Shown here one piece after another: positions 1-51,635 of a stretch of 64,000 nt of DNA. The notes under the pieces were generated by a model. That model was not told the origin of the DNA. It was given only the letters and a program-made list of their open reading frames with translations, and did no database searches. Both the position numbers and the translations under genes were made by a program. Source of the stretch: Bdellovibrionota bacterium (GTDB lineage: Bacteria > Bdellovibrionota_C > UBA2361 > CALJRW01); NCBI GenBank assembly GCA_041740355.1, contig JBGSMD010000063.1, positions 1-64,000 of the forward strand, written 5' to 3'. The stretch's first letter is position 1; every line of letters begins with the position of its first letter.

Positions 1-140
1 GTTAGTAAATTGAATAGAGTCATTACGGCTAATGCAAATCTTGGTTTTATCCAAGTTTGCATAGCTAAAAACAACATTAATAGTGAGTTCAAGCAAAATC
101 GTTAATCATTTAAAGTAATTTATTTATTGGACTCACTATA
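1..140 (-). mobile_element. MITE-like element, truncated by the window edge; inverted copy of 15217-15387
   Basis: Manual alignment: 48-140 matches the reverse complement of 15217-15309 at 85/93 nt, and 1-44 matches the reverse complement of 15344-15387 at 41/44 nt. Ends in ...GACTCACTATA. Confidence 0.8.
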
Positions 141-145
141 AGATC

Positions 146-208
146 ATAGTCGCGACAAAAATCACAGCTATCTTTTAAATATTCGGAAATTTTTTTGTCA
201 TAACTATA
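146..208. repeat. Short terminal-inverted-repeat unit of the same TATAG family
   Basis: ATAGTCGCGACAAAAA ... TTTTTGTCATAACTATA imperfect inverted ends. The right end recurs near 15430-15445, 45290-45307 and 51520-51536. Confidence 0.65.
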
Positions 209-248
209 AAAGGATCAAATCCCCTCAAATTGGACAAAATCTTTTTCC

Positions 249-278
249 CCACCGCACTCCATGCTATGGTGTGACAGG
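249..278 (+). repeat. 30-nt REP-like unit (degenerate copy)
   Basis: CCACCGCACTCCATGCTATGGTGTGACAGG aligns without gaps to copies at 15311, 15388 and 27305. Confidence 0.55.
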
Positions 279-3060: not shown

Positions 3061-4428
3061 ATGATATTTCCTAAAGGCTTTCATTTTGGAGTGGCAGATG
3101 CTGACTTACAAGTTATCTCCGAAGATAAATGTTTAGCACTGGAGAATTCCGAGCCCAGTATGTGGCTTGCTTTTGCGAATCAAACAAATAAATGCTTCAA
3201 CTCTGACTCACCTGCCTTAGGGATAGATCGATACTCTAAATGGCCAGAAGATATTAATTTTTTAAAGAAACTGGGAGTCCAAGGCTATCGCACGTCAATC
3301 TCCATGTGTCGGACAATTAGAAGATCTGGAGAAATCAATCCGCAAGCAATTCAGTGGTATCAAAACTATTTACGAACCATTAAGAATCTAGGGATAAGCG
3401 TTGCAGCTACATTATATCACTGGGAGCTGCCAGAATATCTAGAGCAACAAGGTGGTTGGACTAGTAGAGCAACAGTTGACGTTTTCCTCCGACATGTAGA
3501 AGTAACTATATCCGAACTTGGTGAATATCTCGACTCAGTCATAATATTAAACGAACCTTGGTGCTCATCAATTCTCAGCTATTACTTGGGAATCCATGCC
3601 CCCGGCCATCAAGACTTAAGAGAAGCATTATTAGCAGCACACCATTTATTACTAGCACAAGCAGAGGCTGTTAAAATTATCAAAGGAATCTGCCCAAAAC
3701 TACATCTTAGTACAGCGCTTAATTTTGAAACTGCTTACTCCGCATCGACTAAAGCAGAGGACCTACAAGCTGCGAAAACTTCCGATGGCTATTTTAACCG
3801 TTGGTTCTTAGATCCGATCTTTAAAGGGTCATATCCCGCAGATATGTTAGAAATTTATGGTGATAAATTTTCAACAGCCTTGGCCAAAGAGGCAAAAAAC
3901 TTGCAAATTAACCAGGCTCTAGATTCACTGGGAATAAATTTTTACCTAGGCAGAGTTGTAAAGCATAATCCAAAAGAAGATTTAAAATTTTCATATATTT
4001 GGAATCCAGCAGGTCTAGTAAATGATCTGGGTTGGCCCATCTGTATACCACCCCATTACCCAAGTGGATTAGCTGATGGTTTACAACAAATTTATTACTC
4101 CTATAAAGACTTTGGGCTTAAATCCATTTATATTTCGGAAAACGGTACAGCGATCTACAACAGTCCTAGTGAGCAGACTGCCCCAGTTCCCGATGCCCGA
4201 AGAATTGCTTATCTTCAAGCCCACTTAGCACAAGTACAAACTGCAATCCTAAGAGGTGTACCCGTTACAGGATACTATGCCTGGACCTTGATGGATAATT
4301 ACGAATGGGCTGAAGGCTATCGAGACGAATCACGATTTGGATTAATCTACGTCAATCGCGAAACATTGGAACGAATACCAAAAGAAAGCTTTTACTGGTA
4401 TCAAAAATTAATTGAGCAGAACTCCTAA
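3061..4428 (+). CDS. Glycoside hydrolase family 1 (beta-glucosidase)
   Basis: TLYHW, NEP acid/base, ISENG nucleophile, DNYEWAEG and RFGL. Confidence 0.93.
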   Translation: MIFPKGFHFGVADADLQVISEDKCLALENSEPSMWLAFANQTNKCFNSDSPALGIDRYSKWPEDINFLKKLGVQGYRTSISMCRTIRRSGEINPQAIQWYQNYLRTIKNLGISVAATLYHWELPEYLEQQGGWTSRATVDVFLRHVEVTISELGEYLDSVIILNEPWCSSILSYYLGIHAPGHQDLREALLAAHHLLLAQAEAVKIIKGICPKLHLSTALNFETAYSASTKAEDLQAAKTSDGYFNRWFLDPIFKGSYPADMLEIYGDKFSTALAKEAKNLQINQALDSLGINFYLGRVVKHNPKEDLKFSYIWNPAGLVNDLGWPICIPPHYPSGLADGLQQIYYSYKDFGLKSIYISENGTAIYNSPSEQTAPVPDARRIAYLQAHLAQVQTAILRGVPVTGYYAWTLMDNYEWAEGYRDESRFGLIYVNRETLERIPKESFYWYQKLIEQNS

Positions 4429-4449
4429 GCATCTAAAATTAATATAATC

Positions 4450-6612
4450 ATGCAAAAAAATAAATTAACTACTAAACGCTATCAAATTGGTAATCCCTAT
4501 CCAACAGAGTCCGTAATACAAAAAATACCTCTGGAAAATTCAATAGAACAATTGAATGATTTCAAGATTCATCAATCAAAAGAACAAGTAAGTCTTCAAA
4601 GAAAGCTTTCTCCGGAAACAGCAATGTACGGCCTTGGTCAAAATATGGGGCCGATTAATCGTCGCGGAAGAAAATTTAGAATGTTTAACATGCAAGCACG
4701 ACCACAGACCCCTGACTGCTTTGCGGTCAATGGTCCCTATTCATTCTTAATCATTAAAGAGGCCGATACTTACCTAGGGATACTGATTGACTGTCCTTCA
4801 GAAATTAACTTTGATTGCGGTTTTAACAATCAAAAACTTCTAGATATAACGATTGAATCAAGCGATTTAGATATATATCTAATTAACTCCAGTCACTTAA
4901 AGGATGTACTACAAGAATATGTTCGCCTAACAGGCACAGCATATCTGCCACCGAAATGGGCTTTTGGATTTCAGCAATCTCGCTACAGTTACATGAACGC
5001 TGAAGAAGTTAAAACTATTGCCAATAAATTTCGCGAACTTAAAATTCCTTGTGATGCAATATACTTAGATATTGATTACATGGATGATTATAAAGTATTT
5101 ACAGTTGATCAAAAACCATTTCCAAACTTCAGCAGCTTTGTACAAGAAATTCAAGGACAAGGATTTAATATAATTCCAATCATAGACCCTGGTGTAAAAA
5201 TTGAATCAGGATATTCGGTTTATGAAGATGGAGTAAAGAATAATTACTTCTGTAAAGATGCGGAAGGAAATGATTACATTGCCGCCGTCTGGCCTGGCCT
5301 TCTGCACTTTCCTGATTTTTTACGAGAAGAAGTTCAGAATTGGTGGGGAGATCTTCATAAATTCTTTACCGACCTTGGTATTACAGCCTTCTGGAATGAC
5401 ATGAATGAGCCTGAGATTTTCTATTCTCCAGAGACAATCAAAAAACTTCAACAGACTGCTAGCGAAATGGACTATACGGCCTGGCGCGATCTAGATCCAA
5501 TTCATTACAAAATAAAAATGGATAGCTACATGTTAAATAGCGAAACTTATTATCCTGATTTTTTTCATCAGACGCCAGAAGGTCCCGTTGCTCATACGAA
5601 ATTACATAACATCTATGGCTTTAAAATGCTTCAAGCTGCCAGTGAGGGATTGCTTAAACTCAATCCCAATCAAAGATACTTTCTAATCTCTCGCAGTAGT
5701 ACAATTGGCGCTAATCGCCTCTCGGGTGTTTGGACTGGTGATAATCATAGTTGGTGGGAACATCTAAAATTGAATATCCAAATGGTAATCTCCTTAAATC
5801 TGTGTGGAGTACTTTACTGCGGTAGCGACATTGGTGGACATTGTGGAAATGCCGACGAGGAATTATTAATTCGTTGGACACAACTGGGAGCGTTTGTCCC
5901 ACTATTTAGGAACCACACAGAGAAAAGTTCCCGACAACAAGAACCTTGGGAGTATAATGTTCAAACAACTCAAATCCTAAAAGATACGATTACTCTCCGT
6001 TATGCCTTGATTGATTATCTTTATTCGGAGTTTCTAAAATCCAGATCAAGTCATCTTCCCTTTATTCGTGCGCTCTTTTTAGAATTCAATGACCCTAGCC
6101 TTGATGAAATAAATGACCAGTTTCTTTGTGGAAGTTCATTAATGGTAGCACCGGTGATTGAAGCTAATGCCAGATATAGAAATGTCTACTTACCGGAATG
6201 TAATTGGTTGTTCTGGTCAGCTAGTGCTTATAATCAAGATAATTTTCAAATTTTAAAATCCGGTACACATAGACTCGCCGTTAAGCTTTCTGAAGTTCCA
6301 GTCTTTGTTAAAGAAAATGAATTAATCCTTTTAACAGAACCAGAACAGTACCTTGGCGAGTTAGAAAAAAAGGAGGCTAGTCTTGTTGGTCTAGTGACTG
6401 GAACTGCTAATTTTAGTCTCTATTATGACTCTGGAAGTAAAATTAATGATAATCCCGGTATTCTTAATATTAAAATTAGAAGAAATGGTGCTTCCATTGA
6501 TCTTGAACACGATCTAATAATTGGAGATACTCCCATTACCTACCAAAAAATTTCCCTTAAGATCTTTAGTTTGAGTGGCGATTGCTTAAGAAGAGAAATC
6601 ACTCTAAAATAA
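4450..6612 (+). CDS. Glycoside hydrolase family 31 (alpha-glucosidase)
   Basis: PPKWAFG, DIDYM, WNDMNEP nucleophile, WTGDN acid/base, FRNH. Confidence 0.93.
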   Translation: MQKNKLTTKRYQIGNPYPTESVIQKIPLENSIEQLNDFKIHQSKEQVSLQRKLSPETAMYGLGQNMGPINRRGRKFRMFNMQARPQTPDCFAVNGPYSFLIIKEADTYLGILIDCPSEINFDCGFNNQKLLDITIESSDLDIYLINSSHLKDVLQEYVRLTGTAYLPPKWAFGFQQSRYSYMNAEEVKTIANKFRELKIPCDAIYLDIDYMDDYKVFTVDQKPFPNFSSFVQEIQGQGFNIIPIIDPGVKIESGYSVYEDGVKNNYFCKDAEGNDYIAAVWPGLLHFPDFLREEVQNWWGDLHKFFTDLGITAFWNDMNEPEIFYSPETIKKLQQTASEMDYTAWRDLDPIHYKIKMDSYMLNSETYYPDFFHQTPEGPVAHTKLHNIYGFKMLQAASEGLLKLNPNQRYFLISRSSTIGANRLSGVWTGDNHSWWEHLKLNIQMVISLNLCGVLYCGSDIGGHCGNADEELLIRWTQLGAFVPLFRNHTEKSSRQQEPWEYNVQTTQILKDTITLRYALIDYLYSEFLKSRSSHLPFIRALFLEFNDPSLDEINDQFLCGSSLMVAPVIEANARYRNVYLPECNWLFWSASAYNQDNFQILKSGTHRLAVKLSEVPVFVKENELILLTEPEQYLGELEKKEASLVGLVTGTANFSLYYDSGSKINDNPGILNIKIRRNGASIDLEHDLIIGDTPITYQKISLKIFSLSGDCLRREITLK

Positions 6613-6639
6613 CTAAGCATTTGAATTTATTAGTTCTTC

Positions 6640-7509
6640 ATGACACTACTCCATGCTCCCGCAATCGATCCTGCTGTCCAACAAGTACTAAATCTAATTC
6701 CAGCAACTGGCAATATTTTAATTGTGTTGGATAAAGACGGAACTTTAGATCCTTTAGTTGCCGAACGTAATGCGGCGCGCGTCCCAAAAAAAACAGTGGA
6801 ATCAATCCTTGAACTTTCTAAATTACCTGATGTAGAAATAATTATTATTAGTGGGCGTGGCGTTCAAGATTTAAAAGAGCTTGTGGGTCCATTACCTATT
6901 GAATACTGGGGATTGCATGGGGCAGAAAATGGCCGTGGGGACTCTAGCAAAAGCACCCTTGCCGTCTCTGCACAAGTTAAAGAACAAGTTGCTCAAGCAA
7001 TTTCTGCGATAGAAAATGATTCGCGTTTAGCCTATCTAGAAAAAACTTATGGAGTTCCAGTTTCGGAAATGATCGAGAAGAAAGAAATTGCTGGTTCTTT
7101 ACTCGGAGTTGCTGTGCACTTTAGAACCATAATTGAAAAAGCAGGTCAAGAAAATTACTACCAAATTGAAGAAATTATTAAGGCTGTTGTTACTGATGCT
7201 TCCAAGGATTTGAATAGTATTACAATCCAACCTGGCAATTGTGTTTTTGAAATCAAACCTCAAGGCATTACCAAAGGAACCGCAGTTGAGGCAATCTTAG
7301 CCCGAGGAAAAGAGTATGCCAAAGTTATTGTTGGAGGGGATGACAGCACAGATTTATATATGATGAATAGCGCTGTAGAATTATTGGGAGACAAGGCAAT
7401 TCCTGTGGTGGTCGGATGTCGTATTCGCCATCCACTGGGGATGGATTTGGACACTCCTTCTCAAATGGGGGAACTTTTAGAAGCCATTGCCAAAAAGCGA
7501 AGTGTATAG
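6640..7509 (+). CDS. otsB: Trehalose-6-phosphate phosphatase (HAD IIB)
   Basis: LDKDGTL motif I, ISGR, GLHGAE, EIKP..TKG, GDDSTD. Confidence 0.85.
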   Translation: MTLLHAPAIDPAVQQVLNLIPATGNILIVLDKDGTLDPLVAERNAARVPKKTVESILELSKLPDVEIIIISGRGVQDLKELVGPLPIEYWGLHGAENGRGDSSKSTLAVSAQVKEQVAQAISAIENDSRLAYLEKTYGVPVSEMIEKKEIAGSLLGVAVHFRTIIEKAGQENYYQIEEIIKAVVTDASKDLNSITIQPGNCVFEIKPQGITKGTAVEAILARGKEYAKVIVGGDDSTDLYMMNSAVELLGDKAIPVVVGCRIRHPLGMDLDTPSQMGELLEAIAKKRSV

Positions 7510-7547
7510 CAAACGCACCTTTAAGTGCGCTCGCTTCGATTAAATTC

Positions 7548-10520
7548 TTAATTTGCAAAAATTGACTGCAAAGTTTTGATATCTAAATCTTTAGTTTCCA
7601 ACACCTGGATCTTGGCCTTCTTTAAACTACCATCTTTAGAAATACCAACTGCCGGCATGCCTGCTTTTAAGATTGCTTCAACTCCAGCCATAGCATCTTC
7701 AACCCCAACACAACAGTTTAGTGGAACTTGTAAAGCCTCAGCTGCCATCAGGAAAACTTCTGGGTCAGGCTTACTGACTTCTACCTTACTAGCATCAACA
7801 ATATGATCTATTAGATGGGAAACTTGAAGACCGTTGATTACCGTAGTCGCATTTTTACTGGCAGATGCTACACCAACTTTAATGCCAGCTTCTTTTAGTG
7901 AAGTAAGAAGTTTTTCAACTCCCGGAAATAAATCTTTTGGTGAAATTTCTTTGATTAACTCTAAGTAGTAATCATTTTTACTTTTAGCTAAAGCTTCTTT
8001 CTCCGCTAATGGTAAACTTTTTCCACCACGCTGAAGAATAAGATCTAAGGACTCCATTCGACCCACACCTTTTAATTCTTCATTGAACTCGCGGTCAAAA
8101 TGGATTTCTAATTGATCGGCTAACTTTTTCCATCCTAAGAAATGATATTCAGCCGTATCAGTTAAAACACCATCAAGATCAAAAATTACAGCTTTTAGTT
8201 CAGACTTAACCGAAACTGTCACAGTTTCTCCTGGCTTAACAATTAAATCCTGATAAAAATGTTTAAGTTTTAATGCTGTTTCACCAGCATTGGTGTAACT
8301 AACTTGATTAGCATCAACCTTAACTTTTAATGGGTTATTGCTAAACTTTAACGAGAATGTGAATGACTTCCAAGCTTCTGGACAGCGCGGAGCAAAATGC
8401 AACTTACCTTGATAAACTCTCATTCCACCAAAACCAGCAATGATTCCATGCCACGTTCCAGCTAAGGCTGCCATATGCAATCCATCCTTGGTGTTACCAT
8501 GAATGTTATCTAGATCTAAACGAACATTTTGTTGAAAAAACTCATAAGCTTCAGCATTAAGTCCTAATTCACTGGCAACAATTCCATAGATTGAAAAAGA
8601 CAACGACGAATCATGTGTCGTTAATGGCTCGTAATAATGATAATTACGAAGCTTCTCTGCAGGAGTAAACTGATCGCCAAGCAAATAAAATGCTAAGACT
8701 AGATCTGCTTGCTTTAGAACCTGATGACGATAAATATTTAAATAGTGATAGTGAAGTAACAAGGGGTGCTTATCGTCTGGAGTTCCGTCAAAATCCCACA
8801 CTGGGCGATCTAAGAATCCATCATCCTGACCAATTAAGCCCTTAGCGCGATCGTAATGAACATACATCTCGCTAGCAGCCTTCTGCCAAAGTTCAATTTC
8901 GGACTGATCAAAAGATAATTTCTTAGCGAGTTCTTGCCAGGCCTTTGGATTTGTTTTTTCCAACAATCCAATTGCTTCAATTGCAAACTCCAAGTTCTTC
9001 TTAGCCAATAAATTTGTATAAGTATTATTATCAACACATGCAGTATACTCATCTGGACCTGTTACCATATGAATACAGAAGCCACGCTCTTTAGAAAAAT
9101 GTCCTAGACTTAACCAGAAACGAGCAACTTCAATTGTCATCTCGAGTCCTGCTTTGGCTAAGAATCCATAATCAGCCGTTGCTTCAAAATATCTTTGTAA
9201 ACAAAAAATGATATCACCATTAATATGAAACTGTGCAGTGCCAGCAGGGAAAAATGCTGAGGCCTCTTCACCATTAATTGTTCTCCAAGGATAGAGTGCT
9301 CCTTTATGGTGCATCTCCTTGGCTCTAGCTTTAGCAACTGGAAGCTGTGAGTAACGTTGCTCTAACAAGGCCTTACTAATTTCTGGCATTGTATACATGA
9401 AGAATGGTGAAATATAGGCTTCTGTATCCCAGAAGTAATGTCCTTCATAGCCTTCTCCAGAAAGTCCCTTTGGACCAACATTGGTGCGTCCATTTTTTCC
9501 TACGTGCTGTAGTAGGTGAAACATATTGAAGCGAATACCTTCTTGAACTAAATCATCACCTTCAATATTTATATCAACAGTTTCCCAAAAATTAACTAGG
9601 TAAGCTTCCTGCTCTTTAGCTAAAGAATCAAAGCCAATGTTCTTAGCTTCTGATCCAATAGCTTTGGACATTTGGTAAAGTTTATCGGCTGAGTCTAGAT
9701 AAGACGGTGGCGCAACGTAAGTGATAAATCGCTCAAAGGTATATTCCTGCCCTGCGGCTATATTAAAATTAATATCAGTTACACAATTCATCCCCTCATG
9801 ATCAACATGCTGCGTACAAGTAGAAGTAATACTTGTTGGTAAGTTTAGGTAAACAGAGCAAGCTAATGGGAGTGCTGTTGATGATGTTTGTACAAGTAAG
9901 GACATCCTCCCATCAGAAGCTTCCGCATTAAGTAATGAATAAACACAGCCAGTCAGAGCGCTTCCCACTCGCGGATCATTAACTGAAACAATATTGGTAA
10001 CTTTTCCGTTTAAGATCGCTTGAAGATCTATAACACCACTAAAATTCTTAGGAGTAATTGTAAATTTTTCAGCAATAATATTTTCCCTAGTAAAACTAGC
10101 AAATCGCTGACAACTAACCACAAGTTCCTGACCACCAGAATACTTATATGTAGTCTTGCGACCTGACTGACCTGTTTTAAAATCAAGCGTACGATCGTTT
10201 TTGAAAATTACTGGACTTTCTTCTTGGCCATCAATCAGAATTTTCAAGGCCGTGGCGTCAGGAATGTTTAGCATCGTCTGAGTTTTCATGGCATAGCCAT
10301 ACCCACCATCTTCATAATGGATTGGGCGAGACTCGTAGTACCCATTAATATACGTACCACGAACGCTTTGATGAGATCCACCAACTAGCTCATCCAGATG
10401 CCCACGGATTCCAAGAAAACCATTAGCAACCGAATATAATGTCTCTTTTAATTTTTCTGATTCTGGAGAGTAATTATTGTCAGAAATTGACCATGAACAA
10501 GGAAGATTTTGAGAGGACAT
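7548..10520 (-). CDS. GH65 disaccharide (trehalose/maltose-type) phosphorylase fused to a C-terminal beta-phosphoglucomutase
   Basis: KGLSGEGYEGHYFWDTE, GPDEY, KQAD and HDSSLS. The C-terminus has FDLDGVLTDTAEYH, KPDPEVFL and EDA. Confidence 0.93.
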   Translation of the reverse strand: MSSQNLPCSWSISDNNYSPESEKLKETLYSVANGFLGIRGHLDELVGGSHQSVRGTYINGYYESRPIHYEDGGYGYAMKTQTMLNIPDATALKILIDGQEESPVIFKNDRTLDFKTGQSGRKTTYKYSGGQELVVSCQRFASFTRENIIAEKFTITPKNFSGVIDLQAILNGKVTNIVSVNDPRVGSALTGCVYSLLNAEASDGRMSLLVQTSSTALPLACSVYLNLPTSITSTCTQHVDHEGMNCVTDINFNIAAGQEYTFERFITYVAPPSYLDSADKLYQMSKAIGSEAKNIGFDSLAKEQEAYLVNFWETVDINIEGDDLVQEGIRFNMFHLLQHVGKNGRTNVGPKGLSGEGYEGHYFWDTEAYISPFFMYTMPEISKALLEQRYSQLPVAKARAKEMHHKGALYPWRTINGEEASAFFPAGTAQFHINGDIIFCLQRYFEATADYGFLAKAGLEMTIEVARFWLSLGHFSKERGFCIHMVTGPDEYTACVDNNTYTNLLAKKNLEFAIEAIGLLEKTNPKAWQELAKKLSFDQSEIELWQKAASEMYVHYDRAKGLIGQDDGFLDRPVWDFDGTPDDKHPLLLHYHYLNIYRHQVLKQADLVLAFYLLGDQFTPAEKLRNYHYYEPLTTHDSSLSFSIYGIVASELGLNAEAYEFFQQNVRLDLDNIHGNTKDGLHMAALAGTWHGIIAGFGGMRVYQGKLHFAPRCPEAWKSFTFSLKFSNNPLKVKVDANQVSYTNAGETALKLKHFYQDLIVKPGETVTVSVKSELKAVIFDLDGVLTDTAEYHFLGWKKLADQLEIHFDREFNEELKGVGRMESLDLILQRGGKSLPLAEKEALAKSKNDYYLELIKEISPKDLFPGVEKLLTSLKEAGIKVGVASASKNATTVINGLQVSHLIDHIVDASKVEVSKPDPEVFLMAAEALQVPLNCCVGVEDAMAGVEAILKAGMPAVGISKDGSLKKAKIQVLETKDLDIKTLQSIFAN

Positions 10521-10765
10521 AAATTCTTAAAATTAACAAAATTATAATTGGGGACTGGTTTTAGTAATCCTGCGCTTTAATGCAACTAATCTTTTTTGGC
10601 AGCAAAAGTTTTTCAAGATTTAACTTTAAAATGCTTTTTACAACGAATTAGCAGTCAAAACATAACATGAAAAATAAGGGGTAGGCAAACCGTCGATCGA
10701 ATAAAAATAAGTCTCTCGGATGCAATGAAAACAATTTTAAAATAATATCGAAAGTCCTAAAAATG

Positions 10766-13321
10766 CTAGTGTTTCTTATGCTTTTGGTCCAATAAGCGAA
10801 GGGTTTCAACAACATCATCAAGTGTTGCTAATCGAAAATTTGATCCCGTTCCAATGCTAGGCATGTCCTCAACTAAGATTGTTGTTCCACCAAGTTCCTT
10901 GGCTACATGCATTGTTCCCGGTGCAGGATGAGCTTCGATTAACAGGTGTGCGATCTCCGGGGAATTATTACCATGTTTTAGTGCCGAAAAAACTTCTCTT
11001 AAAGACTGAGAAGCAAAGTCTCCATAAGGAACAAGTTCAAAATTAGATTCCCCGTTGAATATTTTAAAATCATTCTCATAGCCACCACGCTTTAGTTGAT
11101 TAACAATCATTTCTCGGATTCTTCCAATTAATTCAGGATTGTTTTCACGATAATGGATGGTTAAAGCTCCGCCCTTTTTTTGAATTTCGATCGTACCTCT
11201 AGCGACACTTGAGCTAAATACTCCTTCCTCAAAAATACTTGCCAATGTGTTAATATTTGCTTCTAAATCACGATTGGCCGATAGCCTGACGACAGAAACA
11301 TCTCTTGGCAAATCCTCATGCCAATAGTCTAATCCGTGTAATCCAATAATTCCAGACAATGTAATATTTTGTTCTCCAAAAGCACGGCGTATTTGCTGAA
11401 CTTCACGACCAGAGACAATTCCAACTTTCAAACCAAGACGATCTTGTAAAGTTCGAAGTGCCTCGATAGCATTTATGTCAAAATGAATTTTTGAGCGATC
11501 CGGATTATACCGTGACAAGACACCATCTAATCCAAGGAAAATAATTGAATTGTGATCGAACCCTGCTAATTCATGGCTTACTAATCCGTCAGGTGTAATA
11601 AACTTTGTTGTACTAGTTACTACTGTGTCAGAGCTCTTCTGACGAAAACTATTTGCTTCGGAAGCAGTGTAAGCATCTTCGATTCGTCTGTTCAACCACC
11701 CTTGCACCGTATGATCCTTAGTAAAGTAATCAATTATATCTTGATTGGTTCTAAACCTAGCATTGTAATGATCTGCATCTCGACTCGCTAATTGAGACAT
11801 CATGTATGTTTCAATTAATGTTTCAACAATTTCTGAAGGTCGCCGTCCATCAAAAGTAATAACAGGCATATGATCTGACGCTCCAGCACCTCTACTAACT
11901 AAATGAAAAAGATGAGGCGCCGCAAATAAGAACTCCGGAGCAACTAAGGCAAACCCGTCAGCGATTGAGGATGTAATAAAAGCACCACTGCCCGGTCTTA
12001 GCTCTAAAGATCGAGCAAGTCCAAAGGCTTCTTTCTGATCTAAATTTTCAGGAAGTAACCAGACAGGTTTCCAGCCCTCAGTACCAAAACGCTGATTAAT
12101 ATTAGTTACAACTCGATCTAATAGTTCATGAAACTCATGGTAGCCAGGCACCTCTTCTCTTGTCGGAGCTGCAACCAGCGCAACACCAACCTTGCCAACT
12201 AAAGAAGGATAATCGGTTAATAATAAGTCGAGTGCTTGAACTAATTCAACAGCCCCTTTGGTGTAATCATAACGAGCAACACTAAGTGTGATAAAGGCAT
12301 CGGGTCCAAAATAAGAATCAAAAAAATCTTTATATTTAAGAACCGCTAGATTGGCCTCTTCACTATGAGCCAGTGTTACAATCTTTTCAGGATTGATACT
12401 GATTGGGTGCTCCCTTAAAAAAACTATCCGGCCATCCTTGGCAAATACAACTTTTGCCTCAGCATCAATTTGATATCCGTGTGCCTCATATTTATTGAGT
12501 AAGGCTTCAACATCACGTCCTCGATGAACTCCAATTACATCTGCGCCAAGCATTCCATCAAGAAGTGCTATCCGTTTGTCCTCCGAAAAATTATTGATGA
12601 ATGGCTCGTTAGGACCAATTGGAATGTGAGACATAAAACTAATTGGAGGGACAGGAAGGCCTCTAACTAGGATCTCCGCTCTGATCGCCGCAGAATCAAG
12701 CATTTTTTGATAATCTTCAACTAAAATTACGAAGGGGGCCTCAGGATTGCTAAGATAGTCAGCTTCGTATCGGGCTACAACTTGCAAGACTGTCTGGGCC
12801 GAAACCGCTTTGATTGCTTGCCATTGCTCGACCCCTAATTCCTTAAAGTTGGGCAGCCCCAAATGACCAATAGCATTGTGGGCTTCCGGCCAAAAGCTAG
12901 CATTATTTGCATCATACATCTGAGCATAAATGTTTCGCGGCAAACGGGTTCCCTCAAGATCAAAAGGGAGAGCCAATTCAGGGTTTGTTTTAAGATGTTG
13001 ATTGATCTTATAAATACTAGCATCGCCTCGTCCCGGCGCTTTTTCGGCACAAATAACTCGAATTTGCATAGTATCATCACTAGCAAGATCGTTTAACGCC
13101 GAGACCACACCTCCACCGCCACGCTTTAAATTAACTACAAGGTCAGGATTTAAATAATCAACTTTAGCACTAACAGGTTGGGCCTGAACATCAACAATGA
13201 CATGAAGACCTTTGGGGAGAGTAGTATTGCTTAACGGAGATTGAACTTGTTGTTCTTGGGGTTTAAGATATTTTTCTACTTTCGGATCCACCGAAATTCC
13301 GTGGAGTGTGTAATTACGCAT
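10766..13321 (-). CDS. Divergent trehalose-6-phosphate synthase (GT20) fused to a degenerate TPP-like HAD domain
   Basis: GGGGVVSAL, FWPEAH, EDYQ, HIP, RYDYTKG, APTR, DGFALVAPE. The C-terminal domain has FLGLDGVL, VSGR and GLHGLD. Confidence 0.8.
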   Translation of the reverse strand: MRNYTLHGISVDPKVEKYLKPQEQQVQSPLSNTTLPKGLHVIVDVQAQPVSAKVDYLNPDLVVNLKRGGGGVVSALNDLASDDTMQIRVICAEKAPGRGDASIYKINQHLKTNPELALPFDLEGTRLPRNIYAQMYDANNASFWPEAHNAIGHLGLPNFKELGVEQWQAIKAVSAQTVLQVVARYEADYLSNPEAPFVILVEDYQKMLDSAAIRAEILVRGLPVPPISFMSHIPIGPNEPFINNFSEDKRIALLDGMLGADVIGVHRGRDVEALLNKYEAHGYQIDAEAKVVFAKDGRIVFLREHPISINPEKIVTLAHSEEANLAVLKYKDFFDSYFGPDAFITLSVARYDYTKGAVELVQALDLLLTDYPSLVGKVGVALVAAPTREEVPGYHEFHELLDRVVTNINQRFGTEGWKPVWLLPENLDQKEAFGLARSLELRPGSGAFITSSIADGFALVAPEFLFAAPHLFHLVSRGAGASDHMPVITFDGRRPSEIVETLIETYMMSQLASRDADHYNARFRTNQDIIDYFTKDHTVQGWLNRRIEDAYTASEANSFRQKSSDTVVTSTTKFITPDGLVSHELAGFDHNSIIFLGLDGVLSRYNPDRSKIHFDINAIEALRTLQDRLGLKVGIVSGREVQQIRRAFGEQNITLSGIIGLHGLDYWHEDLPRDVSVVRLSANRDLEANINTLASIFEEGVFSSSVARGTIEIQKKGGALTIHYRENNPELIGRIREMIVNQLKRGGYENDFKIFNGESNFELVPYGDFASQSLREVFSALKHGNNSPEIAHLLIEAHPAPGTMHVAKELGGTTILVEDMPSIGTGSNFRLATLDDVVETLRLLDQKHKKH

Positions 13322-13626: not shown

Positions 13627-14985
13627 CTAAAGCTCCTCCACTCCATTAGCTGCACCAATCATCGGCACTGAAATTTTACCAGTTTTAACTTCCAAGGGTG
13701 TCATTAAGTTAAGAAAAATCTTTTGATCTATATTACTAGCTAAAGAATCTACCCTTACTTTTAAAGTATTCCAGAAGATAGGTACTTCTCGGGAAAGTCT
13801 AGAATCAAGTGCGATGTTTAAACAATCTTTTGTTCCAACTAAGTTGGCAATCGATCCATAGGCCACAACAGAACATAGCTCCGCGCCTCGAACCAACAAC
13901 TCAGTGGCTAATGTTCCTAATAAATTAAGAACATTTGTTGTGTAGACTCGGCGATCGCTCCGACGATTTAAAAAGAATTCTAAATCAGAATTTACTAACG
14001 AGAGATCACGACTACGATACTCATACCATCTATCAGCTCCCATATTCATCAGACTATTTGCCAGTGGCTTAAGTTCAGCAATTTCTTCCGACAAGACAAG
14101 GATATACTGACAAAAAATCTTTGGTAAAAAGTTCCCCACGGAAAGATGTTCTATAGTTAATGCTTTTTGCTGATCATCAATACAATCCGCTACAGTTCTT
14201 ATATTACAATCATTTAAATAAAATCGGCCGCCAATTTCGGAATTGCAAATCATTTGATTATCGCTAGTGCCTAGCCCTAGCTCTTTCTCTGACTTTAAAA
14301 TGGTGGCATTTAATCCAGTGGATGCAACCATCCCAGAATCAGCATTTGCCAGCGCCTTCATAGTTAAAGGAGTATCATTAGCTATTAAAAAACTTTTGAT
14401 AGGGATGTTTCGCTTACGAAGGGACTCCACGATTTCGATACCAAGATCTCGGCCATTTGTAAGTGCCTGAGTAAACCACTCGCCTTTGGTATACTCTTCA
14501 ATTTGAGTAACTAATCCACTAATCCCAGTACCAATCCATGGTTTATTCTCCATGGCATTAGACCAAACTAAACCACAACCCGTCACTGCGTCACGGGGAA
14601 TACCAGAAGTAACTAAACTTCGCTCGACTTGATTACCTAACATCTTACAGAATGCCGTGAAGGGATTGTCTTTTAAAGCGACTTCCAGCATTTCCAAATT
14701 TTTATTTTCAAATAATAATCGCCATTCAGTTGAAGCTCCATTACTTATTTTTACAGCCGCTTTTGTTGAGGTTCCTCCGATATCAATTGTTAGGATACAA
14801 GAACGACTGGTTCGCTGTTTGTTAGCAGAAAGATAACTGGGCAAGGCCTCAAATGCTGGCTTTAAATTTTGTCCAGCATTGGCATTGGCTAATTTAGCGT
14901 ACTCATAAAGTGAGTTTAGATTTTCACGCGTGGAATAAAAATTTAAGTTATTAAGACAAGACTGAATTTGATTATTTTCCTTCAT
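13627..14985 (-). CDS. Hexokinase-family sugar kinase
   Basis: ALPSY, DIGGT, NDT, STGLNA and NSEIG follow the order of hexokinase motifs (MLPSY, DLGGT, NDT, GTGTNA, NTEWG). Confidence 0.75.
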   Translation of the reverse strand: MKENNQIQSCLNNLNFYSTRENLNSLYEYAKLANANAGQNLKPAFEALPSYLSANKQRTSRSCILTIDIGGTSTKAAVKISNGASTEWRLLFENKNLEMLEVALKDNPFTAFCKMLGNQVERSLVTSGIPRDAVTGCGLVWSNAMENKPWIGTGISGLVTQIEEYTKGEWFTQALTNGRDLGIEIVESLRKRNIPIKSFLIANDTPLTMKALANADSGMVASTGLNATILKSEKELGLGTSDNQMICNSEIGGRFYLNDCNIRTVADCIDDQQKALTIEHLSVGNFLPKIFCQYILVLSEEIAELKPLANSLMNMGADRWYEYRSRDLSLVNSDLEFFLNRRSDRRVYTTNVLNLLGTLATELLVRGAELCSVVAYGSIANLVGTKDCLNIALDSRLSREVPIFWNTLKVRVDSLASNIDQKIFLNLMTPLEVKTGKISVPMIGAANGVEEL

Positions 14986-15310
14986 ATTGCTCCCAAATCT
15001 GCATTCTTAACTTTTATCGAATGCAAAACATTATCAGAACGAACACGCCTGACGACTTAGTCCAAAACTTGCCCAGTCCAGTTTATACTCATAATAGCAC
15101 CATCTGTAAAAGGCTAGAAAAACTCGTCTATCCAAAACTCAGATTAAATTTTGTATGATAAAAACAGGTAAAATACTGGAACATTATTACTAATATGCTA
15201 AGGTAGTTTTGCTATTTATAGTGAGTCTAAAAAATAAATTACTTTAAAACACTAACGATTTTGCTTGGACTCACTATTTATGTTGTTTTTAACTATGCAA
15301 ACTTGGATAT

Positions 15311-15340
15311 CCGCCATAGCTTTTGCTTTGGCGCGACAGG
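15311..15340 (+). repeat. 30-nt REP-like palindrome
   Basis: CCGCCATAGC-TTTT-GCTTTGGCG-CGACAGG; absent from the homologous copy at 1-140. Confidence 0.8.
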
Positions 15341-15387
15341 TATCCAAGATTTGCAATAGCCGTAATGACTTTGTTCAATTTACTAAC

Positions 15388-15417
15388 CGGCCTTCGCTGA
15401 AGCTTCGGCTAGGCAGG
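15388..15417 (+). repeat. 30-nt REP-like palindrome
   Basis: CGGCCTTCGC-TGAA-GCTTCGGCTAGGCAGG, lying in the loop of AATTTACT...AGTAAATT. Confidence 0.75.
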
Positions 15418-15460
15418 CAGTAAATTATTTTTTGTCATCACTATATATAAGCAAAGCGAT

Positions 15461-16795
15461 ATGATTATTATGAAATTTGGAGGAAGCTCCGTTGGTACGG
15501 CTGAGCGCATCAGATCTGTAAATAAGATTATTGCCAACTACCTATCAGAAAAACCTATTATCGTTTGCTCAGCTATGGGCAAAACCACCGATCTATTATT
15601 ACTTGCTGGTCAAAAAGCATTACTAGAAGGCGTCGTCGATTGTCAGGAAATCAAATCTAATCACCTACAAGCTTGTGAAGAATTAATAATAAATCCTGAA
15701 GTGATTCAGGAATTATTATCAGAATTGGAACAACTACTAAATGGAATTAAACAGATTAGAGAAATATCCCCACGAACAAAAGACTACCTTGTTTCATTTG
15801 GGGAGCGCCTAGCAGTTCGAGTCATAGCAACAAGCTTTAATCAGGAAGGACTCAAAGCACAGTTTTTTGATTCTTGGGAAATTGGAATCAAAACAAATAA
15901 TAAATTTATGGAAGCAAGCCTACTACCTGAGGCTGATCAAGAAATTAATCAAAAACTTGGCTTTCTAAAAACTGATTATCAATTCACTCCGGTCATTACT
16001 GGATTTATTGGACAAGCTCCTTGTGGATCAATCACAACTTTTGGTCGAGGTGGTAGTGATTTAACTTCCAGTATAATTGGCGCCGCTTTAGATGTTAAAG
16101 AAATTCAAGTCTGGAAGGACGTTGATGGTTTAATGACCGCCGATCCACGTAAGGTTCCCAATGCAATTCCAGTTAATAAAGTCAGCTTCGAAGAAGCTTC
16201 CGAACTTTCCTACTTTGGAGCAAAAGTTCTCCACCCGCTTTCGATGATGCCCGCTAAAGAGAAAGGAATTACTGTCCGTGTAAAAAATTCCTATAATCCT
16301 GAAGCCCTTGGTACTATTATTACCGCCGAAACTGATTACTCATTAGGCCCAGTGAAATCAATCACCAGTAAAAATGACATTATATTAATCGATATTGTCT
16401 CTTCCAAATTATTGGGAGCCGTAGGTTTTGTATCAAAGGTTTTTAATGCTTTCGAAAAATATGATATCTCTGTCGATGTACTAGCAAGCAGCGAAGTCAG
16501 TATTTCATTAACTGTCGACAAGCAAGACAATCTCGAAAAACTAGTGTCCGAGCTTTCAGAATTTGCCTCAGTCAATGTTCTTCATAATCATTCTATTGTT
16601 AGTTTAATTTGTAATGCCCAAAATTCTTCCTTAATTCTAAGTGATTTATTCTTAGCCTTATCAAAGGAAAAATTAAATCCAAAGATGCTTTCTCAGGGCG
16701 CTTCAAAATTAAATATCAGTTTAGTATTTGATCAAGCGGAAGCGGATCGGGCCTTAAACATTGCCCATAATTCACTTTTAAACTTAAGAAATTAA
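15461..16795 (+). CDS. lysC: Aspartate kinase (monofunctional, ACT domains)
   Basis: KFGGSS, SFGE, GRGGSD, KDVDG, FGAKVLHP. Confidence 0.95.
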   Translation: MIIMKFGGSSVGTAERIRSVNKIIANYLSEKPIIVCSAMGKTTDLLLLAGQKALLEGVVDCQEIKSNHLQACEELIINPEVIQELLSELEQLLNGIKQIREISPRTKDYLVSFGERLAVRVIATSFNQEGLKAQFFDSWEIGIKTNNKFMEASLLPEADQEINQKLGFLKTDYQFTPVITGFIGQAPCGSITTFGRGGSDLTSSIIGAALDVKEIQVWKDVDGLMTADPRKVPNAIPVNKVSFEEASELSYFGAKVLHPLSMMPAKEKGITVRVKNSYNPEALGTIITAETDYSLGPVKSITSKNDIILIDIVSSKLLGAVGFVSKVFNAFEKYDISVDVLASSEVSISLTVDKQDNLEKLVSELSEFASVNVLHNHSIVSLICNAQNSSLILSDLFLALSKEKLNPKMLSQGASKLNISLVFDQAEADRALNIAHNSLLNLRN

Positions 16796-27146: not shown

Positions 27147-27170
27147 GATTTGTTCTCCTCTTTAAGTAAA

Positions 27171-27435
27171 CCCTCCGCAGATGAAATTTGCGGAGGGCGA
27201 GCGTAATCTTGGCTTTAGCCAAGTTACACCGTAAAAGACAAAACCTATACTCACCGCCGGTTTGCGTAGGGTTTAGTATTGTTCTCTACGGCAAAACCTG
27301 TCTTCCACCTTCGCTTAAGCTACGGCGGACAAGGCGACAGGATTTTACTCGCCGGGACTCGCTACACTCGCTCCCCCTTCGGGACACCTTTCTTTTCATT
27401 TTTTATCAAAAATGAAAAGCGGTGAGTATATCTGA
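27171..27435. repeat. Composite multi-hairpin interspersed repeat overlapping the TetR 3' end
   Basis: Hairpins CCCTCCGCA/TGCGGAGGG and CTTGGCT/AGCCAAG, a perfect 12-bp inverted repeat TATACTCACCGC (27246)/GCGGTGAGTATA (27419), and a REP unit at 27305. Shares words with 32915-33089 and 47149-47307. Confidence 0.75.
27305..27334 (+). repeat. 30-nt REP-like palindrome
   Basis: CCACCTTCGC-TTAA-GCTACGGCGGACAAGG inside a CCTGTC...GACAGG stem. Confidence 0.8.
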
Positions 27436-32858: not shown

Positions 32859-33089
32859 ATGTACTAGTCAAGTTAAAAAATTAATTTTTTAAAAATTCAG
32901 GCGACTAGTACATTAAGCACTCCGTGCTTCAGGCGACCCTTGGGGGTCGCTAAGGGTGAAATGTTTATAAAATAAACATTTCACCTGGGGAGAACAAATA
33001 TACTAAAACCCAAACAAACTAAAAATGGCGTAGGCATTTTACCAAGCTGTTCAAAATAAGTTAGTGGGTTTTAGTATATCTGAATCAGC
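32859..33089. repeat. Multi-hairpin interspersed repeat (five stems) upstream of rnc
   Basis: ATGTACTAGTC/GACTAGTACAT, AAGCAC/GTGCTT, GCGACCC/GGGTCGC, GGTGAAATGTTTAT/ATAAACATTTCACC, TATACTAAAACCCA/TGGGTTTTAGTATA. Confidence 0.8.
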
Positions 33090-35213: not shown

Positions 35214-35357
35214 TATAGAAAGTCCAAAAAGTAATCTACTTAAGGAAATTACTTTGTGGGGCTTTTGTTACCCGAGGGATAATAAAATCATATAGTTATT
35301 ACTAAAGACAATTTACTCTATTTTATTAAGACGTAACTTATTTTTGGAATAACTATA
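35214..35357 (+). mobile_element. MITE-like element, TATAG family
   Basis: TATAGAAAGTCCAAAAAGTAAT...CTTATTTTTGGAATAACTATA; collinear homolog at 51389-51536. Confidence 0.78.
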
Positions 35358-45227: not shown

Positions 45228-45284
45228 ATTTTAGATTTAGACTTAATTGAAAGTTTTGTCAGGTGTATACTGGATAACATTGAA

Positions 45285-45425
45285 AATTACTTTTTGTCAT
45301 AACTATAAAATAAGTCGCCTAAGAGATATTAAGTGCGAAGCACTTGTAGCGACCCTAAGTGGCCGCTCAGGCGTAAATGCATATTTTATAGGCATTTTAT
45401 CTGGGGAAAACAAATATACTAAAAC
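45285..45425 (+). repeat. TATAG-family end followed by a multi-hairpin repeat copy
   Basis: AATTACTTTTTGTCATAACTATA, then AAGTGC/GCACTT, GCGACC/GGCCGC, AAATGC/GCATTT and CTGGGGAAAACAAATATACTAAAAC, collinear with 32915-33010. Confidence 0.75.
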
Positions 45426-47307: not shown

Positions 47308-47405
47308 TTGATTTTGTGCCTTACGCAAATGTTTTTTTGGGCTAGTAAGCCCTTGTTGAGCCAACAAGGGCAGATGTATCTAAATCAGCTAAATTTAGAA
47401 AAGTT

Positions 47406-47455
47406 TGGAGGAGAGTGAGGGATTCGAACCCCTAACGGGGTTTCCCGAATCGCCC
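47406..47455 (-). pseudogene. Degenerate 3' half of tRNA-Ser(GCT)
   Basis: 47406-47431 is identical to the 3' 26 nt of the tRNA at 47503. GTTTCCCG from the variable arm is also retained. Confidence 0.75.
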
Positions 47456-47502: not shown

Positions 47503-47592
47503 TGGAGGAGAGTGAGGGATTCGAACCCTCGGTACAGTTTCCCGTACACTCGCTTAGCAGGCGAGTGCCTTCAGCCACTCGGCCAACTCTCC
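47503..47592 (-). tRNA. tRNA-Ser(GCT)
   Basis: Cloverleaf GGAGAGT/ACTCTCC, anticodon arm CTCGC-CTGCTAA-GCGAG, long variable arm, CCA encoded. Confidence 0.97.
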
Positions 47593-47646
47593 ATAGTTAT
47601 TATAGATTTTTAGTACTAAAAATCAGAAATTGTATTCCACAAAAAC

Positions 47647-47734
47647 TGGAGGAGAGGGACGGATTCGAACCCCCGAAGCCTTGCGACTTGCCGGTTTTCA
47701 AGACCGGTGCCTTCAACCACTCGGCCACCTCTCC
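47647..47734 (-). tRNA. tRNA-Ser(TGA), copy 1
   Basis: Anticodon arm CCGGT-CTTGAAA-ACCGG, long variable arm, CCA encoded. Confidence 0.95.
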
Positions 47735-47865
47735 TTATAATTAATTGTAGATTTTTTTGACTGATTAATCAGAAATTCTTATCTATGCCAATCTGCCCTG
47801 AATAATCTTTGTAAAATTATTCAGGAGTACCCACCTTTGTTTTTTACGTAAGCAAAAACCAAAAA

Positions 47866-47953
47866 TGGAGGAGAGGGACGGATTCGAACCCCCGAAGCCT
47901 TGCGACTTGCCGGTTTTCAAGACCGGTGCCTTCAACCACTCGGCCACCTCTCC
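47866..47953 (-). tRNA. tRNA-Ser(TGA), copy 2
   Basis: Identical 88-nt sequence to 47647-47734. Confidence 0.95.
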
Positions 47954-48080
47954 TCAGTTTGGTGAGTTGAAATTATAAAATAATCACTTTAAATGCAAGT
48001 ATTTCAGAAATTTAGCAGTAAAAAAGATCCGTTTTTTGCATTTATCCCTAAATTCTGTTAGAAATGCCAACCTGAATTGT

Positions 48081-48154
48081 GCGCTTTTAGCTCAGCTGGA
48101 TAGAGCGTCTGACTACGAATCAGAAGGTCGGTGGTTCGAATCCTCCAAGGCGCA
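48081..48154 (+). tRNA. tRNA-Arg(ACG)
   Basis: GCGCTTT/AAGGCGC acceptor stem, anticodon arm TCTGA-CTACGAA-TCAGA; CCA not encoded. Confidence 0.95.
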
Positions 48155-48177
48155 TTTTTTTATCTTCAATCTATCTA

Positions 48178-48253
48178 TTGGAGGATTCGAACCATAAAAA
48201 AACACTGCGAATCCTTTTTTCGAGAATCGAAAAAATCCTCCAAGGCGCATTTT
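48178..48253. repeat. Inverted plus direct copies of the tRNA-Arg 3' end
   Basis: 48178-48194 is the reverse complement of 48132-48148. 48234-48253 (AATCCTCCAAGGCGCATTTT) is a direct copy of the tRNA 3' end. Confidence 0.85.
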
Positions 48254-51388: not shown

Positions 51389-51536
51389 TATAGAAAGTCC
51401 AAAAAGTAATTTACGTAAGAAAATTACTTTTTGGGGCGTTCTATCCCCCGCAAGCGTTATAAAATCATACGGTTATGACAAAAAAGCAAATTAATCTATA
51501 TACTTTTTACGTAATTTATTTTTTGTCATCACTATA
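51389..51536 (+). mobile_element. MITE-like element, TATAG family
   Basis: TATAGAAAGTCCAAAAAGTAAT...TTATTTTTTGTCATCACTATA; homolog of 35214-35357. Confidence 0.78.
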
Positions 51537-51539
51537 ATA

Positions 51540-51635
51540 CTGGAGAAAACAAATTTACTAAAATCCAAAATAAGAAAATACGATCAAGATTTTCTAAAGT
51601 AAAAGCAGTTAGGATTAAAGGATTTTAGTAGATCG
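51540..51635 (+). repeat. Partial multi-hairpin scaffold copy
   Basis: CTGGAGAAAACAAA-TTTACTAAAATCC...GGATTTTAGTAGATC parallels 32985-33080. Confidence 0.65.

Follow-up and report, generated by a model that had tools for sequence, protein, structure and literature searches.

A 31-nt hairpin unit with filled and empty sites, found mostly as single copies across bacterial phyla, with a small SLX1-like GIY-YIG nuclease as candidate partner

The spread of repeats shorter than 40 nt is a long-standing puzzle, and it is raised by a 64,000-nt stretch of DNA from a Bdellovibrionota bacterium (contig JBGSMD010000063.1; hereafter the window, G+C 36.9%), in which two copies of one repeat differ by a small insert in a hairpin loop. 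When the reverse complement of positions 1-141 is aligned with 15216-15387, the copies are 91% identical over 94 nt and 93% identical over 44 nt, and only one gap, of 31 nt, separates them, in the loop that the host hairpin GCAAA..TTGG / CCAAG..TTTGC forms. An earlier note on this DNA, which described copies about 91% identical with extra nucleotides in one hairpin loop, is borne out by this alignment, in which two of the three bases right after the gap differ between the copies.

The filled copy, which had been taken to end at 15387, is longer: it is a 229-nt MITE-like element (15217..15445) with TA at both ends and imperfect 26-nt terminal inverted repeats (15217-15242 and 15420-15445), it holds two units, here called A and B, and it ends 15 nt ahead of lysC (15461). 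Its terminal inverted repeats with TA ends and its lack of an ORF are features of IS630/Correia-type MITEs, and by likeness it may be one of these. The second host copy (1..140, reverse strand) is empty at site A and cannot be scored at site B, because the window edge falls at this second insertion site. Related elements, by rough alignment without a unit, are found at 51389..51536, which serves as an outgroup for site B, at 35214..35357, at 141..208 (a short element that has just the right-end module and lies directly against the empty host copy) and at 45282..45307 (a lone right end of the terminal-repeat family). A rough alignment of four related element ends shows the unit to be missing from the position of site B in all four.

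Among the 44 of 55 long ORFs scanned in the window, none belongs to a transposase or GIY-YIG family, and tblastn with two GIY-YIG proteins also found no GIY-YIG gene there. Searches of plasmid and phage sequences with the units, the host and pieces of GIY-YIG genes yielded no usable match. Rfam matches in the window are tRNAs only, plus two chance-level matches around the host, which itself has no match; a riboswitch ahead of lysC was therefore ruled out. No σ70 promoter or terminator consensus was found at 14980-15470. In all three complete elements (15217-15445, 35214-35357 and 51389-51536) the right end faces a downstream gene, namely lysC 15 nt away and the genes at 35409 and 51647, respectively, and the end of the element at 51389-51536 together with its flank spells TATAAT (51533-51538). 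Correia elements can supply promoters, and these terminal-repeat elements may do the same for the genes downstream. Another repeat family, partly palindromic and with a common 24-nt end, is present at 32912-33009, 45328-45425 and 51540-51563, and one of its ends directly follows the terminal-repeat element at 51536. Elsewhere, the window contains a glycoside hydrolase cluster (GH1, GH31, GH65) with trehalose-phosphate synthase and phosphatase domains (3061-13321).

Four units are present in the window at the places where they had been reported, and a pattern search gave three matches compared with none in 100 shuffles; with a pattern drawn from the four units, no others were found in the 64 kb at up to 4 mismatches. 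Unit A (15310..15340) fills the loop of the host hairpin 15297-15309 / 15341-15354, as seen in the gap relative to the 1-141 copy, the alignment and the fold. Unit B (15387..15417) lies in the loop of AATTTACT (15377-15384) / AGTAAATT (15419-15426), beside the right terminal repeat, and unit C (248..278), a diverged copy with a compensatory A:T pair in its stem by alignment, lies in the loop of CAAAATCT (235-242) / AGATTTTG (280-287). Unit D (27304..27333) occupies the loop of CCTGTC (27297-27302) / GACAGG (27336-27341). Units A, B and C are 31 nt long and D is a 30-nt variant without a bulged base, so the uniform length of exactly 30 nt claimed before does not hold. All four are on the same strand, as had been said, here the forward one, but this agreement (p = 0.125) carries no weight as evidence. 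Three had been placed within stem-loops; those placements stand, and the copy at 248, in the loop of its own flanking pair, must be added to them. The stems around the four units are perfect (8, 6, 8 and 6 bp), and with 4.0% of intergenic positions flanked by a stem of at least 6 bp, the chance of finding four of four in loops is 0.04^4 = 2.7e-6, a figure uncorrected for selection and for the two sites that share one element. The window units are diverged from the family consensus in the alignment. The left arm of unit A reads ATA where the family has TTC, making it a closer complement of its right arm, and this change is possibly a quasi-palindrome correction. The intergenic region around unit D (27147-27395) is crowded with other GC-rich palindromes, apparently several kinds of nested repeats.

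A scan of GTDB genomes for a pattern that was based on units A and B, which returns exact matches to that one pattern from a sample that may be non-random, yielded at least 121 loci with at least 125 distinct copies of the unit (individual loci are given L numbers). The 80 titled records among the matches listed include Verrucomicrobiota, Acidobacteriota, Desulfobacterota, Planctomycetota, Patescibacteria, Proteobacteria and Bdellovibrionota, and all 80 are metagenome-assembled or uncultured. The pattern left base 1 unconstrained, and in the listed copies the base preceding the match is T if position 27 is A (43/46) and C if position 27 is G (75/79). This covariation defines a unit of 31 nt, and it puts the start of unit A one base before the position 15311 originally proposed, base 1 being the partner of base 27. 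In the fold, a bulged stem of six pairs leads through an internal loop to a short inner stem, and 4 nt are left as an unpaired tail; the stem includes G-U-type pairs. Across 31 distinct rows of the alignment, 94% of cells pair, the 1:27 pair is UA in 17, CG in 13 and otherwise in 1, and covariation exceeds that of 500 of 500 shuffles, a result that kinship among sequences can give without structure. The alignment shows what appears to be a hairpin kept by compensatory change.

Two smaller classes have ends in common with the 31-nt unit: a 30-nt class without the bulge (5 copies, the one at 27304 and 4 in listed GTDB loci) and a class shortened to about 19 nt, with 7 copies. By the core pattern, 117/125 listed copies have no partner within 150 nt, which is an upper bound because looser partners were seen by eye (L114, L086), and 2/125 have an inverted partner matching that pattern within the same distance. 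In L018 (5082-5162), L034 (9968-10062), L044 (7518-7610) and L026, units are repeated head to tail, at periods of 31, 32 and 51 nt, or lie inside other units. The best explanation of the family is a non-coding element of 30-31 nt that spreads as a single copy.

When the flanks of all 125 listed sites were searched against the listed loci, an empty counterpart was found for 13: 12 with a 31-nt gap (L013, L015, L020, L030, L032, L041, L049, L050, L054, L055, L071 and L080) and one, in the gene for a Ser/Thr kinase (L016), with a net gain of 24 nt in frame. There is no target duplication at these sites; a 1-nt duplication of C is possible for the C class, and the T class speaks against it. Insert junctions are clean in L032 and L041, have changed bases in L013, L055 and the window pair, and overlap by microhomology in L016. 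These alignments show apparent insertion of the unit at unrelated sites with a net gain of 31 nt and without target duplication, and the unit is almost certainly mobile, as the description of it as a tiny mobile unit had implied.

Inserts in coding sequence indicate the direction of change. The translated unit accounts for 9-10 residues that are extra in Ffh (L068) and phosphoglucose isomerase (PGI; L033) relative to their PDB homologues, and two kinase paralogues on the L016 contig are without the unit insert. Since the Ffh and PGI inserts are missing from solved homologues, the filled state is the derived one. Among the loci no empty PGI allele was found, the PGI homologues there being too distant (29%), and the IleRS in L045, in which the unit translation lies within a gap-free alignment, was for that reason left out of the net insertions. 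Because the unit is 31 nt long, it can be kept in genes only when a junction trims it to a multiple of 3, and the net gain of 24 nt in the kinase is such a trimming seen at the DNA level. Two kinase genes from different genomes (L016, 10000-10030; L112, 116-628) have the unit translation in the same segment with differing flanking residues, which suggests that one tolerant spot was hit independently in each. Four loci, L019 (a Syntrophobacterales MAG), L094, L103 and L118, have one host repeat in common with the unit at an identical position in it, so filled hosts can spread too.

The reverse order of events, in which an ancestral filled copy became empty when its extruded hairpin was deleted, draws on the fact that hairpins delete during replication and on the presence of a single empty host copy in the window. 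It is extremely improbable: the unit boundaries have no direct repeat, the unit occupies many unrelated hosts, the related window elements are without it at site B, and homologues of Ffh, PGI and the kinase do not contain it. The ancestral filled form that the earlier note had set against its own reading thus finds little support, and insertion into empty sites remains the preferred account, with empty counterparts at 13/125 listed sites and a derived filled state in three proteins.

The earlier note had also supposed that the unit targets hairpin loops. For the loop tests L074 was dropped, as it overlaps L073; the 125 sites were reduced to 111 by dropping 13 with another unit within 30 nt and one at a contig edge, and to 108 independent sites by dropping L094, L103 and L118, which have the same host as L019. 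The loop enrichment predicted on that view is found with perfect stems, since 14/108 listed GTDB sites have a stem of at least 5 bp (5.9% in the null, p = 0.005), 6/108 one of at least 6 bp (2.3%, p = 0.04) and 4/108 one of at least 8 bp (0.6%, p = 0.005), but not in a folding-based test (17/111 sites versus 12.3%, p = 0.38), in which local folding energy equals that of nearby DNA. Outside the window, strict targeting of loops is therefore not supported as a rule, with no perfect 5-bp stem at 94/108 listed sites. The window, with four of four, is far above the rate at listed GTDB sites, and low G+C does not explain this, as 0/19 low-GC listed sites have a stem of at least 6 bp.

These counts also bear on the idea that the insertion machinery itself recognises hairpin loops, making the unit a dedicated parasite of stem-loop repeats. 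All four window units are in loops, stems of at least 8 bp are in excess at the listed sites, four of the five sites with stems of at least 7 bp have the unit at the exact 3' edge of the loop, and short relatives of the unit fill loops of tRNA duplicates (L072). Against this idea, which we consider quite improbable, are the many sites without a stem, the null folding test with equal local folding energy, and inserts in plain coding sequence. The notion of a parasite of other repeats fares better as regards hosts, for the unit often lands in other repeats: tandem-repeat context is enriched (14/111 sites versus 5.5%, p = 0.006), although a shared-14-mer test for sites within repeats was uninformative (62/111 compared with a 44% background), and hosts judged by eye include SRM-like repeats (L071, L080, L083, L106), repeats of the GGGGWSAS type (L012, L117; motif given in PMC3733652), other units (L026, L028) and the start of a RAYT-like gene (L013). 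No fixed target word was found in the flanks of the listed copies, which show only a preference for C, the base 3' of the insert in 89/125. Overall, hairpin loops and repeats are favoured as sites, with a 2- to 6-fold bias, but are not required.

A bias of this size could also be left by selection if insertion were near random and harmless inserts survived. All checkable coding inserts are in frame (the kinase at net +24, PGI and Ffh at 9-10 residues), so filtering is strong, and the window copies, being diverged from the consensus, are maybe old survivors. On the other side, the hosts are mostly dispensable repeats in which, we reason, an insert in a stem should cost little, and the preference for C at +1 means that site choice is not random. 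Such filtering is a possible but doubtful source of the excess, and it is compatible with the best explanation, a single-copy element with biased but unrestricted sites.

Genes near the units indicate what might move them. Among the 179 ORFs that adjoin units in L001-L080, two encode GIY-YIG proteins and one an ISL3 transposase. L114 holds part of a third such gene: there, the CCA end of tRNA-Pro is followed by a unit, then by inverted units and then by the start codon of the GIY-YIG gene. All three GIY-YIG genes found in 1.08 Mb of loci are 144-486 nt from a unit, compared with 9.6% of this DNA within 500 nt of one; the profile used was made from the three genes themselves, so distant members may be missed. 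The gene in L066 is SsnA-like and, having SRM-type flanks of its own, was left out of the count of partners although a unit lies 158 nt upstream, and the gene in L072 is flanked by the shorter 19-nt relatives of the unit, which leaves L114 as the only locus with the direct arrangement in DNA. The SLX1-like GIY-YIG gene of L072 sits amid tRNA-Gln duplicates (9060-9680) whose T-loop and anticodon loop are filled with stacks of about 19-nt unit relatives.

A further test drew on the habit of gene callers to extend small genes of the GIY-YIG type upstream. The L114 fragment, whose clade matches UPF0213 and SLX1 in the PDB, was compared with a representative protein library, and among the best 150 of 1667 matches there were 44 N-terminal extensions of at least 10 residues. 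A match to at least 6/7 residues of the unit translation was found in 8 of these 44, compared with 4/300 when the DNA ahead of ordinary genes was translated (p = 1e-5) and 0.65 expected in shuffles, and 6/8 are in the orientation seen in L114. An exact 6-residue test was weak, at 4/150 with a shuffle mean of 0.4 and a maximum of 3. The nearby genes and the 6/7-residue matches show a link, at the level of predicted genes, between the unit and a clade of small single-domain SLX1-like GIY-YIG genes. Of the two kinds of enzyme offered at the outset, the GIY-YIG nuclease has gained from the three nearby genes and the read-throughs, and the RAYT transposase is not supported, with 0/179 neighbours containing Y1_Tnp and a RAYT-like fragment that is itself a target. 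The likely partner is thus a small GIY-YIG nuclease of SLX1-like type rather than a RAYT. Other repeats associated with nucleases are also invaded by units, however, and proximity may therefore reflect targeting and not partnership.

A REP moved by a HUH tyrosine transposase (RAYT) through single-strand peel-and-paste would have the right chemistry, in that the absence of target duplication, the short-tagged hairpin and the preferred C 3' of the insert would all fit, and RAYT-like genes occur in 2 listed loci of the 121 sampled. The intact ones are 1.2 and 3.3 kb from a unit and none is among the adjoining ORFs, the RAYT-like fragment is broken by a unit, the unit has no GTAG tag, and its copies are mostly singlets as opposed to the reported doublet (PMC3116915, as available to us), all of which makes a RAYT origin improbable. 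An RNA route, in which a tRNA trailer or processed hairpin is reverse-transcribed and then inserted, finds some support in the G-U-type pairs of the stem and in the 3/21 tRNA genes of the listed loci that abut a unit exactly at the CCA end. These units start right after CCA of tRNA-Cys in L086 (225-330), tRNA-Ala in L088 (301-405) and tRNA-Pro in L114 (223-330), and an inverted partner follows in L086 and L114. This route appears very improbable, as no reverse transcriptase is among the 179 neighbours, inserts have no target duplication or tail, and tRNA 3' ends are also ordinary sites of DNA integration. In the window (47404-47434 and 47503-47953), a pair of almost identical tRNA-Ser(TGA) genes, separated by 219 nt, is found with a tRNA-Ser(GCT) and with a second copy of a tRNA 3' piece, at 47404, which suggests an old integration site, and repeats of a tRNA-Arg 3' end lie at 48080-48250.

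With the SLX1-like nuclease as preferred partner, a chain of events can be proposed. The nuclease, acting in trans, would recognise the unit hairpin on single-stranded DNA and cut beside it, by analogy with SsnA and its own repeat, and host repair would then take up the freed oligonucleotide or cut end wherever another site has a nick or gap. Capture by host repair would leave no duplication and would give occasional junction changes or overlap by microhomology. Loops and repeats would be hit or kept 2 to 6 times over chance because they are single-stranded, break-prone or insert-tolerant. GIY-YIG enzymes are hydrolases and are not known to carry out strand transfer. SsnA is described, in the part of the source available to us, as cutting just one strand, in single-stranded DNA, at a point a few bases upstream of its own hairpin (PMC11893778). 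We regard the chain of cutting in trans and capture by host repair as somewhat probable. The fuller statement, that a cross-phylum 31-nt single-stranded element spreads without transposase, integrase or reverse transcriptase, with excision by an SLX1-like GIY-YIG protein of 80-95 residues, insertion by host repair and a loop and repeat bias, is put forward tentatively.

Whatever its route, the unit family has clean single-copy filled and empty pairs, its boundary is fixed at 31 nt and its candidate enzyme is small, which makes its spread testable with one protein and a few oligonucleotides. Core proteins (Ffh, PGI) gain 8-10 residues from the unit and IleRS has residues replaced by it, with consequences for how genes of uncultured phyla are annotated and how their proteins evolve. 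If nuclease excision and host repair do move it, this would be a new route of transposition, a selfish role for prokaryotic SLX1-like proteins, and a further family, next to Ssn, of single-strand nucleases with sequence specificity; the L114 clade could also serve as a tool if its cuts in single-stranded DNA fall at a defined sequence.

No paper on a 31-nt repeat of this kind was found among the titles and openly available texts compared. The small dispersed repeats (SDR) of Nostoc, which Elhai is said to have described in 2008, are reportedly mobile and about 20-30 nt long; presumably their sequence and hosts differ from those of the unit. In contrast to SDR, the unit has no fixed target word, only a preference for C, and a candidate enzyme is in view. 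Precise insertion of SDR5 within the HIP1 palindrome is reported in the available portion of PMC4390886, and the Rickettsia palindromic elements resemble the unit as palindromes borne in frame by conserved proteins (PMC3733652, in part).

REP sequences provide closer parallels. According to the accessible text of PMC3733652, REPs with CGTC or GTAG tags are tagged palindromes of 20-40 nt, some lie in frame in genes, some occur as regular inserts within other palindromes (A. variabilis GTAG-15, T. roseum GTAG-23, H. neapolitanus CGTC-1), and CGTC repeats have no dedicated transposase. A CGTC REP has a CGTC/TGTC/CCTC tag, an 8-9-bp stem starting AT and a CCA tail (same text), whereas the unit, whose tag on the reverse strand is TGTC/TGCC, has a bulged stem starting (N)CGCC and no CCA tail; it also differs from GTAG REPs in having no terminal GTAG tag (alignment and base counts). 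The unit's sequence words were not found in four supplement files of PMC3733652, and, judged by their description, it is probably distinct from the 28 REP families there. The REPIN/RAYT system, as far as PMC3116915 was available, is likewise non-autonomous palindromic DNA in or beside other repeats and is moved in trans, but a REPIN is an inverted doublet whose singlets are read as remnants, whereas 117/125 listed units are singlets with clean boundaries and without a flanking RAYT.

The closest known systems are the SRM/NTS repeats and their Ssn nucleases, which, in the sections of PMC11893778 at hand, share with the unit an oriented hairpin of about 30 nt, a short unpaired tag and a wide distribution across phyla; like SRM/Ssn, the unit places a hairpin of the 20-50 nt class beside a small single-domain GIY-YIG gene. 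A degenerate SRM search pattern matches 0/125 listed units and nothing in the window, and unlike Ssn, the unit-linked nuclease is SLX1/UPF0213-like, the L072 protein being 28% identical to an Ssn-type protein and the L114 fragment unalignable with one. No link of prokaryotic SLX1-like genes to repeats was found in the available text of PMC1564403. Mobility of NTS-ssnA-NTS has been raised as a hypothesis (PMC11893778, same sections), and for the 31-nt unit, by comparison, filled and empty pairs of a single repeat are seen. The unit, judged by its sequence and gene neighbourhood, is therefore a system that would work like SRM/Ssn but is not a member of it.
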